Below are positions 35,084-37,098 of a stretch of 61,862 nt of DNA, piece after piece (the stretch's first letter is position 1; every line of letters begins with the position of its first letter). Source of the stretch: Candidatus Shapirobacteria bacterium (GTDB taxonomy: Bacteria; Patescibacteriota; Microgenomatia; UM-FILTER-40-11); NCBI GenBank assembly GCA_020059745.1, contig JAGVBK010000003.1, positions 134,492 through 196,353 on the forward strand, written 5' to 3'. The notes under the pieces are model-generated. The model saw nothing but the letters and a program-made list of their open reading frames with translations, searched no databases and was not told the origin of the DNA. The position numbers and the translations under genes were made by a program.

Positions 35084-36316
35084 ATGAGTATAGAAAATTC
35101 AATGTGTTTAAGAAAAGCAATACCGCAGCAAGCAGTGAATTATTTCAAGCATTTACCTTTGGCTTTACTTTCACTTGTTTTTTACGGTTTTCCCGCAAAA
35201 AAGCTTAAAGTCATTGGCGTTACCGGAACTGATGGTAAGACTACCACCGTTAGCCTTATCTATCATATTCTTCAAAGTTTAAACTTAAAAACAGCCATGG
35301 TTTCCACTGTCTCGGCAAAAATTAATGATGAGGAAATTGATACAGGTTTCCATGTTACTGCCCCTGACCCCTGGCTTCTTCAGGGTTTACTTGGAAAAAT
35401 GGTTAAAAAGGGCATTAATTATGCCGTGATTGAAGCCACCTCACATGGTTTAGATCAGTTCAGGCTGTTTGGAATTAACTTTAATATTGGGGTTTTAACT
35501 AATATTACCCACGAGCACCTTGACTACCACAAGAGTTTTGAAAATTATCGCGAGGCTAAAGCAAAGCTCTTTTTAAATTCACAAAACATTGTCCTTAACA
35601 CCGACGACAATTCTTTCAGCTATTTAAAAGAAAAGCTGAAAGGAAAAAAAATCATTACATATGGTTTAAAAAACAAGGCTGATTTTACTCCAGAAGACCT
35701 ACCCCGTACTCTTAGATTGAAAGGAGAGTACAACAAATATAACTATCTTGCAGCCATGGCTGCGGTGAGTATTTTGGGTATAGGAAAAGATGAAAGTAAA
35801 AAAGCGCTTGAAACTTTTAAGGGGGTTGAAGGCAGAAGACAGGAAATCGAAACCAGCCAAGATTTTCGGGTTATTGTTGACTTTGCCCACACCCCAAATG
35901 CTTTAGAACAGGTTCTTAAGAGCCTGAAAAGCGAGTTAAAAGGAAGGGAGAGGTTGATTGCTGTTTTTGGTTCAGCAGGGCTAAGAGACAAAGAAAAAAG
36001 GCCTAAGATGGGAGAGGTGGCCGGTCGTTTGGCGGATTTGGTAGTCTTAACTGCCGAAGACCCGCGAACCGAAAAGGTTGAGGATATTTGCGCAGAGATT
36101 GCCAGGGGTTGCCAAAAAACAAACTGCACACCGGTGATTATTGACAACCGAACTGAGGCGATAGAATTTGCCGTTAATGAGGCAAAAAAAGGAGATGTGG
36201 TTGTTATCTGCGGCAAGGGCCACGAAAAGTCAATGTGTTATGGAAAAAAGGAATACCCCTGGTCAGACACCGAGTCTGCCTTGGAGGCTATTAAAAAAAG
36301 AAAGGAGAAAAAATGA
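35084..36316 (+). CDS. murE: MurE-like Mur ligase lacking the canonical N-terminal UDP-binding domain
   Basis: P-loop GVTGTDGKTTT at residue ~46, then EATSHGLDQFR, NITHEHLDYH, DFAHTPNAL, GSAGLRDKEKRP, TAEDPRTE (compare the DNPR motif) and GKGHE. Only 74 nt separate it from ftsI, leaving no room for domain 1. Confidence 0.8.
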   Translation: MSIENSMCLRKAIPQQAVNYFKHLPLALLSLVFYGFPAKKLKVIGVTGTDGKTTTVSLIYHILQSLNLKTAMVSTVSAKINDEEIDTGFHVTAPDPWLLQGLLGKMVKKGINYAVIEATSHGLDQFRLFGINFNIGVLTNITHEHLDYHKSFENYREAKAKLFLNSQNIVLNTDDNSFSYLKEKLKGKKIITYGLKNKADFTPEDLPRTLRLKGEYNKYNYLAAMAAVSILGIGKDESKKALETFKGVEGRRQEIETSQDFRVIVDFAHTPNALEQVLKSLKSELKGRERLIAVFGSAGLRDKEKRPKMGEVAGRLADLVVLTAEDPRTEKVEDICAEIARGCQKTNCTPVIIDNRTEAIEFAVNEAKKGDVVVICGKGHEKSMCYGKKEYPWSDTESALEAIKKRKEKK

Positions 36317-37098
36317 AGCTATTTTTCAGCGAATTCAAAGCTGATTATTCAAAATATCATTTTCCTTACCAAGTTTGGCTTTTGAAAGAGGAAGGTGACA
36401 GTCAGGAGCAGCTTTACAGTTCCGGTTTTTTGCCGATGAGAAACATCCCCAATGTCTATTATCTTTCAAGAAGCGTAAGAGTAGGCTTAAAAGGTTTTGA
36501 GATTTCTAGCGAAAACAGAAGGATACTTAAAAAAACAGAAAATTTTAACTCAAGGCTCTTTGCTTTAAATGAGTTTGAATATGGTCCTCGGGTACAAAAG
36601 ATGTGCAAGGATTATGCTAACCAGAGGTTGAGGGGAATTATTACCAGCGCTTCAATTAAAAACATTTTTTCCGGAAAGGTTTACAGCCATGTTTTTGTTT
36701 TTGAAAATAAAAAAAACAGGGAAGAAGCAGGCTTCGCGGTAGTCAGAATTACGGAAAAGATTATCCAGTATGGCCACTCTTTTTATGATTTGAGCTATCT
36801 GTCGGACAATCTTGGGGCAAGAATGATGCTTGAGGCGGTGATATGGGCCAAGGAGAACCAAAAAAGCCACATTTATTTAGGCACTTGTTATAGTCAAAAC
36901 GCGCTTTACAAAACAGAATTTAAAGGCGTTGAGTTTTTTAACGGATTTGAATGGAGCAGTGATCTTGAGGAACTTAAGTACTTGGTAAGAAGAGAAAGTG
37001 AAGAATACCTTTTAAAAGACCAGGAATATTTAGAAAAATTTCACGAAAATGATTTTCACAGGATATTGGATAAAAAGGGTATTCGAGTAAAATTATAA
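36313..37098 (+). CDS. Arginyl/leucyl-tRNA--protein transferase-like (ATE/Bpt family, GNAT-related fold) protein
   Basis: By remembered alignment to bacterial Bpt: SGFLPMRN..YYLSRSVRV (GFRRSG..YR), NRRILKK (RRILKRN), YGHSFYDLSYLSDNLGARMMLEAVIWAKENQKSHIYLGTCYSQNALYKTEFKGVEFFNGFEW (YTFYEPD...SLG...YLGYWI...KM.YK..Y.P.E.L...W). ATGA overlap with murE. Confidence 0.65.
   Translation: MKLFFSEFKADYSKYHFPYQVWLLKEEGDSQEQLYSSGFLPMRNIPNVYYLSRSVRVGLKGFEISSENRRILKKTENFNSRLFALNEFEYGPRVQKMCKDYANQRLRGIITSASIKNIFSGKVYSHVFVFENKKNREEAGFAVVRITEKIIQYGHSFYDLSYLSDNLGARMMLEAVIWAKENQKSHIYLGTCYSQNALYKTEFKGVEFFNGFEWSSDLEELKYLVRRESEEYLLKDQEYLEKFHENDFHRILDKKGIRVKL

Follow-up and report, generated by a model that had tools for sequence, protein, structure and literature searches.

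To our knowledge, enzymes of the ATE/Bpt type are known only as modifiers of protein N-termini in degradation pathways, and the tRNA-dependent enzymes of cell wall synthesis are known only from the Fem family. Here we examine an ATE/Bpt-like gene that lies inside a wall operon of a Candidatus Shapirobacteria bacterium (Patescibacteria). It encodes a protein of 261 amino acids and occupies positions 36313..37098 on the + strand of the window, by which we mean the whole stretch of 61,862 nucleotides of contig JAGVBK010000003.1 that was analysed. We consider it rather probable that this ATE-like protein acts as a tRNA-dependent transferase in the making of wall precursors.

With ATE1 and Bpt the protein shares a GNAT core carrying the pattern YLG...YK..F.G.E, the catalytic Tyr-Lys pair, a basic acceptor-stem helix and the pattern R..R..F..S...RR.L.K leading into that helix. 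It differs from them in lacking the ATE_N domain, the CxxC/CC cysteines and the Arg of the GFRRSG motif, in having Ala in place of Glu/Asp277, in a tail of its own of about 45 residues, and in a gene context of mur or alr genes instead of proteolysis genes. With FemX of Weissella viridescens, and with FemXAB and MurM more generally, it has in common the fold superfamily, the kind of catalytic Lys and, by genomic association, a link to peptidoglycan precursor synthesis. By this analogy it plausibly works in the fashion of Fem enzymes, passing an aminoacyl group from tRNA to the amine of a small wall precursor. Unlike FemX, however, it has one GNAT domain and not two, no coiled-coil arm and no match to PF02388, its model matches FemX with a TM-score of 0.39, its partner is an Mpl-like ligase, and its acceptor may be a free amino acid and not the side chain of residue 3. 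The L/F-transferase Aat, which acts on Arg and Lys protein N-termini for ClpS, resembles it as a single-GNAT aminoacyl-tRNA transferase whose donor pocket is hydrophobic, as that of the present protein appears to be (Foldseek E ~1e-5), but the protein studied here has no PF03588 match and a distinct N-lobe.

The Mpl recycling route is a further point of comparison, since the ligase encoded next to the ATE-like gene carries Mpl signatures and the attachment of a preformed peptide to UDP-MurNAc, which we propose below, is the Mpl reaction. The present ligase differs in that it is encoded in a biosynthetic division and cell wall (dcw) operon beside murB and murA, in that it scores under the NCBIfam mpl cut-off (233 vs 389 bits), and in that the peptide would be made de novo and tRNA-dependently; for the bacteria that carry it, murein recycling is not known. 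Precedents for aminoacyl-tRNA-dependent peptide bonds onto free amino-acid-like acceptors are offered by DhpH-C, DhpK, PacB and VlmA, GNAT-fold transferases that act on small-molecule amines in natural-product pathways (PMC12945691). These are FemX-like double-GNAT proteins, in contrast to the protein described here, and for acceptors that are small molecules the same 2026 review names FemX-like GNAT transferases only, with no ATE-type member among them (PMC12945691). In the literature we found no description of this ATE-like family, of an ATE-type enzyme in mur operons or of an Mpl-based de novo route, nor any account of Mpl or MurD peculiarities in Patescibacteria. The gene thus places an aminoacyl-tRNA transferase in a new functional setting, and if the bypass of MurC and MurD considered below holds, the whole pathway would be new.

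Identity, fold and conserved residues of the ATE-like protein

The open reading frame (ORF) begins with an ATG (36313-36315) that overlaps the TGA stop codon of murE (36314-36316) in the tetranucleotide ATGA, and ends with a TAA (37096-37098) that leaves a gap of 4 nt before the ATG of the next ligase gene at 37103. A Shine-Dalgarno-like AAGGAG (36302-36307) lies 5 nt 5' of the start, so that together the two signals, read from the sequence, span 36302..36316 on the + strand. We read the ATGA overlap as translational coupling of murE and the ATE-like gene; a 4-nt overlap or a gap of 0-7 nt is likewise found in five homologous loci (L001, L003, L004, L085 and L095). The preliminary description of this DNA had noted the overlap with the murE stop and the end 4 nt before the next mur gene, had quoted an ATE_C-like pattern and an NRRILKK box, and had called the gene ATE/Bpt-like. 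The DNA bears out the gene limits, and the translation of 36313-37098 contains both elements, as SFYDLSYLSDNLGARMMLEAVIWAKENQKSHIYLGTCYSQNALYKTEFKGVEFFNGFEWS and SSENRRILKK. No dedicated tRNA gene was found near the operon, only a tRNA-Val at 61695.

The assignment to the ATE/Bpt group is supported by profile searches and by predicted fold. Pfam ATE_C (PF04377) matches residues 125-208 with 27.0 bits (E 7.6e-6), a narrow margin over the cut-off of 25, and no other Pfam model matches at E<=1; ATE_C was also matched by 23 of 26 diverse family members. Judged by these profile matches, the resemblance to ATE_C exceeds chance. Seven NCBIfam Bpt models ('arginyltransferase', PRK01305) match residues 53-216 with E values of 7e-10 to 1.5e-4, but their equivalog scores of 21.8-38.7 bits fall far under the cut-offs of 170-358. 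Because of these scores we regard the protein as a distant relative of Bpt and not as an equivalog; the sub-cut-off scores, together with the absence of the specificity elements described below, rule out a Bpt orthologue, and the protein is not an orthologue of ATE1 either. Neither the protein nor any of the 26 diverse members matched ATE_N (PF04376), FemAB (PF02388) or Leu_Phe_trans (PF03588). Sixteen of the 26 did match Acetyltransf_6, a GNAT model that we take to be FemAB-like.

An AlphaFold2 model built from a 40-sequence family alignment has a mean predicted local distance difference test (pLDDT) score of 85.9 and a predicted template-modelling (pTM) score of 0.85, and its predicted architecture is one GNAT core with an ATE-type N-lobe and a helical tail. 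The tail, of about 45 residues, is conserved and is the family's own. When the model was compared with the PDB by Foldseek, human and yeast ATE1 ranked at the top (E 3e-9 to 1e-6, query TM-score up to 0.63), followed by the aminoacyl-phosphatidylglycerol synthase domain of MprF, Weissella FemX and E. coli L/F-transferase (E ~5e-6 to 3e-5); all ranked matches are aminoacyl-tRNA transferases. The kinship with Fem and L/F-transferase enzymes that had been suggested for this gene stands in part. The fold is related to that of FemX (E 5e-6, TM-score on the query 0.39) without a PF02388 match, and no PF03588 profile match was found, the likeness to L/F-transferase being structural only (E ~1e-5). 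The absent profile matches rule out membership of the Fem or L/F-transferase families, and only the mechanistic analogy is retained. Lipid aminoacylation of the MprF kind was also considered and set aside, as ATE1 is matched more strongly than MprF and the protein has neither a fused nor an adjacent membrane or flippase domain.

We borrowed residue roles from the ATE1 proteins of K. lactis and S. cerevisiae (PMC9351520; bioRxiv 10.1101/2022.07.20.500667; PMC10115844), aligning the family profile to S. cerevisiae ATE1 (ScATE1) residues 239-307 with HMMER; this alignment is weak (E 1.2) and is anchored on YLG and YK. Tyr199-Lys200 (36907..36912, + strand) aligns in this way with ScATE1 Y303-K304 and is the putative counterpart of klAte1 Tyr303-Lys304 and FemX Phe304-Lys305. 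The pair is invariant in the 26 diverse members, as it is in the two groups of the family described below, mur-linked and alr-linked. K304 acts at the aminoacyl-transfer centre as the equivalent of FemX K305 (PMC9351520). Residues 66-74 (SENRRILKK; 36508..36534, + strand) are helical in the AlphaFold2 model and form a basic segment, with S66, E67, N68 and R70 invariant in mur-linked and alr-linked groups alike. By alignments with weak scores, this segment corresponds to SKELKTSLKR in K. lactis ATE1 and to a segment of human ATE1, and the longer stretch R56...F62..S65-S-E-N-R-R-I-L-K-K74 aligns with IRTNEKYLTMSKELKTSLKR of K. lactis ATE1 and with a stretch of the human protein; scores are low, and two of the three sequences agree in register. 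It would thus be the counterpart of the ATE1 alpha3/alpha-f helix, which enters the tRNA acceptor stem's major groove (PMC9351520, PMC10115844).

Elements that set the specificity of ATE1 are, by contrast, replaced. The ATE1 donor-pocket residues S255/S273/E277/Y289 correspond to Y153/M171/A175/I187 in the same weak HMMER alignment to ScATE1 (E 1.2), which would give a hydrophobic pocket as in Bpt (A/A/Q/L); on this alignment E/D277 has become A175, and arginine is probably not the donor. Cys98 and Cys192 are the only cysteines in the protein, and ATE1 C20/C23/C94/C95 have no counterpart. In a manual motif alignment, G38-F39-L40-P41-M42-R43 stands in place of ScATE1 G77-F78-R79-R80-S81-G82, L40 and P41 being nearly invariant in the 26 members; the second Arg of GFRRSG (klAte1 R80) reads the acidic N-terminal side chain (PMC9351520). 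R43, which sits in the loop that bears R80 in ATE1, is conserved only in the mur-linked group, as is R170, and Ser and Phe occupy these positions in the alr-linked group. Two expectations of the preliminary description can be weighed against these residues. It had doubted that the protein is an N-degron enzyme, and the Arg for acidic N-termini, the Cys cluster and the acidic residue for an Arg donor are indeed all absent; it had also named loss of the catalytic pocket as a warning sign, and the Tyr-Lys pair and the basic tRNA helix are retained. To judge from its residues, the protein resembles an active transferase that depends on tRNA and whose donor and acceptor are unlike those of ATE1.

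Linkage to Mur ligases and a possible dipeptide route

Homologues formed 708 clusters (90% identity) at E<=1e-3 and 657 representatives at 50% identity, with 573 confirmed relatives in GTDB species genomes; gene context was read from 80 fetched genome loci with flanks of up to 10 kb, from the 62-kb window and from further contigs. In the Patescibacterial loci with flanking sequence the ATE-like gene always touches a Mur ligase gene, and its neighbour in each sampled lineage is a MurE without the UDP-binding domain, a UDP-MurNAc ligase, or both. L001-L008 and L095/L096 have the order ftsI, murE, ATE-like gene, ligase, murB, murA, (ddl), murF, mraY, and L094 has murE, a PgeF-like gene, a LysW-like gene, the ATE-like gene, ligase, PALP, ATP-grasp, CHAP-like gene, mraY. 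Elsewhere the pairing is found on its own: the ATE-like gene followed by the ligase alone, outside the dcw cluster and between glycosyltransferase genes and rmuC (L009); murE followed by the ATE-like gene alone (L013); or the ligase followed by the ATE-like gene after a 3-nt gap (the contig of P0167). In P0230 the two genes are fused in frame, at the same operon position, into a 645-aa ATE-like::ligase protein with a Pro/Ser linker. This fusion is present on three separately assembled contigs, and an assembly artefact is unlikely, the product being an identical 645-aa protein with its Pro/Ser linker on three contigs of different assemblies.

The mur synteny seen in this genome thus recurs across divergent Patescibacteria, including a natural fusion to the downstream ligase. 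Since mur-linked lineages whose ATE-like proteins share just 33-60% identity retain the linkage, we regard it as old and specific, and the explanation that it is a mere by-product of the dcw operon is weakened by the stand-alone pairs and by the fusion. The most constant partner of the Patescibacterial ATE-like gene is the downstream Mpl-like ligase.

In the window this partner is a full-length UDP-MurNAc ligase of 466 aa (37103..38503, + strand), which the preliminary description had labelled MurC/Mpl; of the two names only the second agrees with our comparisons, by which the ligase is of the Mpl type and not MurC-like. By BLASTP it scores 199 bits (30% identity) with E. coli Mpl and 114 bits (26%) with E. 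coli MurC, and its orthologues show the same preference (143 vs 91 bits in L094, 185 vs 82 bits in L095). A seven-residue Mpl-specific loop was described by Das et al. (PMC3060825); the corresponding PALFKGDPSKF of the ligase equals CAFFDKRSKF of Mpl in loop length and aligns gap-free with the Mpl of E. coli and of Psychrobacter, and such a loop is missing from E. coli MurC and from the 9ir5 MurC. The ligase also carries IYPPVS, an instance of the (V/I)YPP(M/V)S motif, and DFAQHP, which resembles the DFAHHP of Mpl. Where MurC has QPHRFTRT and Mpl has EPRSNTMK, the ligase has DPKTTGLK, so that the HR..R residues by which MurC binds L-Ala are absent; in place of the Arg with which MurC holds the carboxylate of L-Ala, the ligase has Leu and Mpl has Met. 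We take these features to favour a peptide over L-Ala as its substrate.

The other two Mur ligases of the cluster are truncated. A MurE-type ligase of 410 aa (35084..36316, + strand; TIGR01085, 412 bits) has only the Pfam domains Mur_ligase_M and Mur_ligase_C and lacks the N-terminal UDP-binding domain 1; its residues 29-406 align with T. maritima MurE 91-482, and residues 26-395 with E. coli MurE 94-483. A MurF-type ligase of 404 aa (40737..41951, + strand) likewise has the M and C domains only, its TIGR01143 match starting at model position 63 and its residues 21-330 aligning with E. coli MurF 93-402. Domain 1 is also absent from the MurE/MurF homologues of L013 (7637-9034), L094 (985-2514) and L095 (6691-8004, 11467-12735). 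In the 62-kb window, as in each of the Patescibacterial loci with flanks of up to 10 kb, neither a murD nor any other fourth Mur ligase was found. UDP-MurNAc would be supplied by murB and murA of the same operon (38507..40740, + strand), identified from their translations; the homologous genes of L001, L003 and L004 carry the MurB and EPSP_synthase Pfam domains.

Our main reading, to which we give a probability of about 0.35, takes the ORF product for an active and divergent enzyme from the ATE/Bpt branch of the GNAT-fold aminoacyl-tRNA transferases, recruited in Patescibacteria for the making of the peptidoglycan stem peptide. It would produce an aminoacyl-amino acid, for example L-Ala-D-Glu, from aminoacyl-tRNA, and the Mpl-like ligase would join this product to UDP-MurNAc, bypassing MurC and MurD. 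We infer its use of tRNA, its donor, its acceptor and the order of the steps, which would run as follows. The basic helix 66-74 would bind the acceptor stem of the charged tRNA and the aminoacyl group would sit in the hydrophobic pocket of Y153, M171, A175 and I187, whose character points to a donor that is small or apolar, L-Ala-tRNA being the simplest choice. At the Tyr199-Lys200 centre the aminoacyl group would be transferred onto the alpha-amine of a free and probably acidic amino acid (D-Glu), which Arg43 and Arg170, found in the mur-linked group only, may help to recognise. The pattern of these two residues would suit an acidic acceptor for the mur-linked enzymes and, for those of the alr-linked group, a neutral acceptor (D-Ala?). 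The natural target of ATE1 and Bpt is the alpha-amine of Asp and Glu (PMC9351520), and a D-Glu acceptor fits this ancestral preference of the family. If both enzymes act in sequence, the transferase would have to act before the ligase, because an aminoacyl-tRNA transferase needs a free amine and the product of a MurC-type ligase has none; the ligase would then join the new N-terminal amine of the peptide to UDP-MurNAc, which is the Mpl reaction. It might do so directly or after extension of the dipeptide by the domain-1-less MurE, and the MurC and MurD steps would be replaced. The Mpl-like ligase, the MurE and MurF without domain 1 and the murD-free cluster fit the making of a free dipeptide at least as well as the adding of a branch.

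We view as rather doubtful the wider proposal that Microgenomates-type Patescibacteria have a lineage-wide route in which an ATE-family enzyme makes the first stem bond (L-Ala to D-Glu or an equivalent pair) from aminoacyl-tRNA and a free amino acid, MurE and MurF variants devoid of UDP-binding domains elongate the peptide off the nucleotide and an Mpl-type ligase attaches the finished peptide to UDP-MurNAc, MurC and MurD being dispensable. If such a route exists, it would give the ATE/Bpt enzymes their first non-protein substrate, and core wall synthesis would need tRNA as an obligatory cofactor. Annotation pipelines would then be mislabelling the ligase as MurC and the ATE-like protein as an arginyltransferase or a hypothetical protein, and the dependence on charged tRNA would be relevant both to antibiotic targets and to the physiology of ultrasmall symbionts. 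An ATE-type enzyme encoded in a mur operon, and in one lineage fused to a ligase, would widen the chemistry of the ATE family. It may also account for the wall of a large uncultured group of bacteria being made with an odd enzyme set (an Mpl-like ligase, truncated MurE and MurF, no murD in the cluster).

Several observations weigh against the dipeptide route. Every substrate assigned to the ATE-like enzyme is one that we infer, and we know of no ATE-family enzyme with a small-molecule acceptor. About 40% full-length identity is retained in Verrucomicrobiota and Calditrichota, where the gene follows alr and a gene for a PurD-like ATP-grasp protein; these phyla presumably have the canonical Mur pathway, and because the protein is equally conserved there, a bypass of MurD is not the function of the whole family. 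The NCBIfam murC model scores higher on the ligase (267.5 bits, cut-off 335.1) than does the mpl model (233 bits, cut-off 388.7). The absence of murD refers to the window and to flanks of up to 10 kb, and a 445-aa ATP-grasp enzyme of the same cluster is a chemically simpler candidate for a MurD replacement. The MurE or MurF without domain 1 might still be using UDP-linked substrates, and the mapping of R80 to P41 depends on the manual motif alignment.

Relatives in other phyla and rival explanations

The ATE-like family is not specific to the candidate phyla radiation: 74 of the 80 genome loci are from Verrucomicrobiota (Limisphaerales and others), Calditrichota, KSB1 and other groups. No Mur ligase gene was found within 10 kb of these 74 non-Patescibacterial loci. 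The mur-linked context that had been expected of the homologues holds in Patescibacteria, and in most of the loci from other phyla the association is with alr rather than with a Mur ligase. A bona fide alanine racemase gene (TIGR00492, 360 bits vs a cut-off of 168) lies at most 2 kb upstream on the same strand in 52 of the 66 loci with enough upstream sequence, and within 500 nt in 44 of those 52; 38 of the 52 also carry a divergent gene for a PurD-like ATP-grasp protein (108 bits vs a cut-off of 288). In Verrucomicrobiota and Calditrichota (L010-L084) the three form a cassette of PurD-like ATP-grasp, alanine racemase and ATE-like genes, for example at 7286-8566, 8772-9998 and 10001-10795 in L011. 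Smaller groups of loci are marked by a downstream Wzi-like gene or by an upstream gene for an M3 oligopeptidase, and a Bacteroidota-like locus has no wall genes nearby. In one protein of 809 aa (P0191) the ATE-like domain is fused to PPDK_N, an ATP-grasp-type nucleotide-binding domain, and to a PEP-utilizers swivel domain.

The preliminary description had favoured a Fem-like modifier of the stem peptide or a precursor. In the form weighed here, such an enzyme would use aminoacyl-tRNA to acylate the side chain of residue 3, at the amine of Lys, Orn or diaminopimelate, in UDP-MurNAc-tri/pentapeptide or in lipid II and so form a bridge or branch, as FemX and MurM do. We find this somewhat unlikely. 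In its favour are the fold class common with FemX (Foldseek E 5e-6) and the match of 16 of the 26 members to the GNAT model Acetyltransf_6; the gene also stands directly after murE, the MurE product being the earliest precursor to carry a free amine, and has murE as its sole Mur partner in L013. The Arg residues specific to the mur-linked group would suit a carboxylate-rich acceptor, glyS is conserved just upstream of the operon, and Patescibacteria are thought to have a monoderm-type envelope, in which bridges are common. The protein, however, has no FemAB (PF02388) match, combines a single GNAT domain with an ATE-type N-lobe and reaches a TM-score of only 0.39 with FemX. Its most recurrent and fused partner is the Mpl-like ligase, whose product is without a free amine, and a branching role would leave that ligase, the fusion, the truncated MurE and MurF and the missing murD unexplained; in diderm Verrucomicrobiota and Calditrichota, moreover, the homologues adjoin alr and not the branch point. 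Of the earlier proposal, then, the cell-wall role is supported by the recurrent mur linkage and the ligase fusion, but the adding of a branch is not established, given the missing FemAB match and the Mpl-like partner.

The contexts outside Patescibacteria lend some weight to an enzyme of more general use, a tRNA-dependent dipeptide or pseudopeptide synthase that would work with a pyridoxal phosphate (PLP) enzyme and an ATP-grasp ligase on a non-stem metabolite or an envelope modifier, its position in the dcw cluster reflecting co-regulation only. The alanine racemase and PurD-like genes of the cassette speak for this explanation, and Patescibacterial clusters carry a PALP-type PLP enzyme and an ATP-grasp protein of the biotin carboxylase (BC)/PurK/PurD class, contiguous with the ATE-like gene in L094; the fusion of P0191 to PPDK_N and the Bacteroidota-like loci without wall genes nearby point the same way. 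We nevertheless judge it unlikely, because away from the dcw cluster, too, the gene stays paired with murE or the Mpl-like ligase (L009, L013 and the P0167 contig), because the ligase fusion exists, and because alanine racemase is itself a wall-precursor enzyme. Least probable of all in our estimate is a protein N-terminal aminoacyl transferase like Bpt, either an N-degron enzyme of altered specificity or a modifier of one protein such as a LysW-like carrier. The closest characterised relatives, by sequence and by structure, do act on proteins, and in L094 the gene immediately upstream of the ATE-like gene is LysW-like; elsewhere a LysW-like gene is part of the cluster. Yet the Arg for acidic N-termini and the Cys cluster are absent, the best Bpt equivalog score is 39 bits against a cut-off of at least 170, the gene is coupled and fused to a Mur ligase and not to Clp components, and in most clusters the LysW-like gene is 7 kb off on the other strand.

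Other genes of the wall cluster

The canonical murD slot of the cluster, between mraY and ftsW, holds genes for a CHAP-like protein, a LysW-like zinc-ribbon protein, a ThrC/SbnA-like PLP enzyme (43983-44906) and the 445-aa ATP-grasp protein (44907-46244). The last matches NCBIfam PRK06524 with 97 bits and has no Pfam match; its AlphaFold2 model (pLDDT 93.5) was placed by Foldseek in the biotin carboxylase/PurK/PurT/PurD class and not with Ddl or LysX specifically. Its family appears to be restricted to Patescibacteria. Comparison with the Verrucomicrobial PurD-like ATP-grasp protein gave no significant sequence similarity, although both have BC/PurK/PurD-class folds, and the idea that the two are relatives was dropped for want of such similarity.

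The LysW-like protein (43733-43915, - strand; 60 aa; PF21344, 41.7 bits) may be a carrier protein inside the dcw cluster. It ends in ...LEEEK and its homologues in L001, L094 and L095 end in EEK, in contrast to the terminal Glu that canonical amino-group carrier proteins have. The CHAP-like protein (42920, more likely 43004, to 43732) has a weak CHAP score of 20.8 bits, under the cut-off, and may be a peptide-releasing amidase; its gene is directly 3' of mraY in all these clusters and beside the ATP-grasp gene in L094. A ddl gene lies between murA and murF in L001 (12479-13372), L003 (12442-13470), L005, L006 and L008, and none was found there in the window (39415-41951), L004 or L007. In one lineage (L094), a Cu-oxidase_4 (YfiH/PgeF-like) gene at 2574-3443 is inserted between murE and the LysW-like and ATE-like genes; PgeF is a reported editor of position 1 of the stem peptide.

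Directly upstream of mraZ these clusters always have a pair of genes, one for glycyl-tRNA synthetase and one for a conserved protein about 270 aa long, at 29457-30755 and 30752-31573 in the window. The pair is also present in L001, L003, L004, L005, L006 and L085; the ~270-aa protein is predicted to begin with a membrane or signal segment and matches no family. This arrangement may be coincidental, or it may reflect a connection with tRNA-dependent wall chemistry. Upstream of the wall operon, positions 1-26200 of the window are occupied by a long same-strand array of GT-C/PMT_2-type glycosyltransferase genes with a Wzy-like gene and a DUF4012 gene, and a second gene of the FtsW/RodA family lies at 58472-59545.

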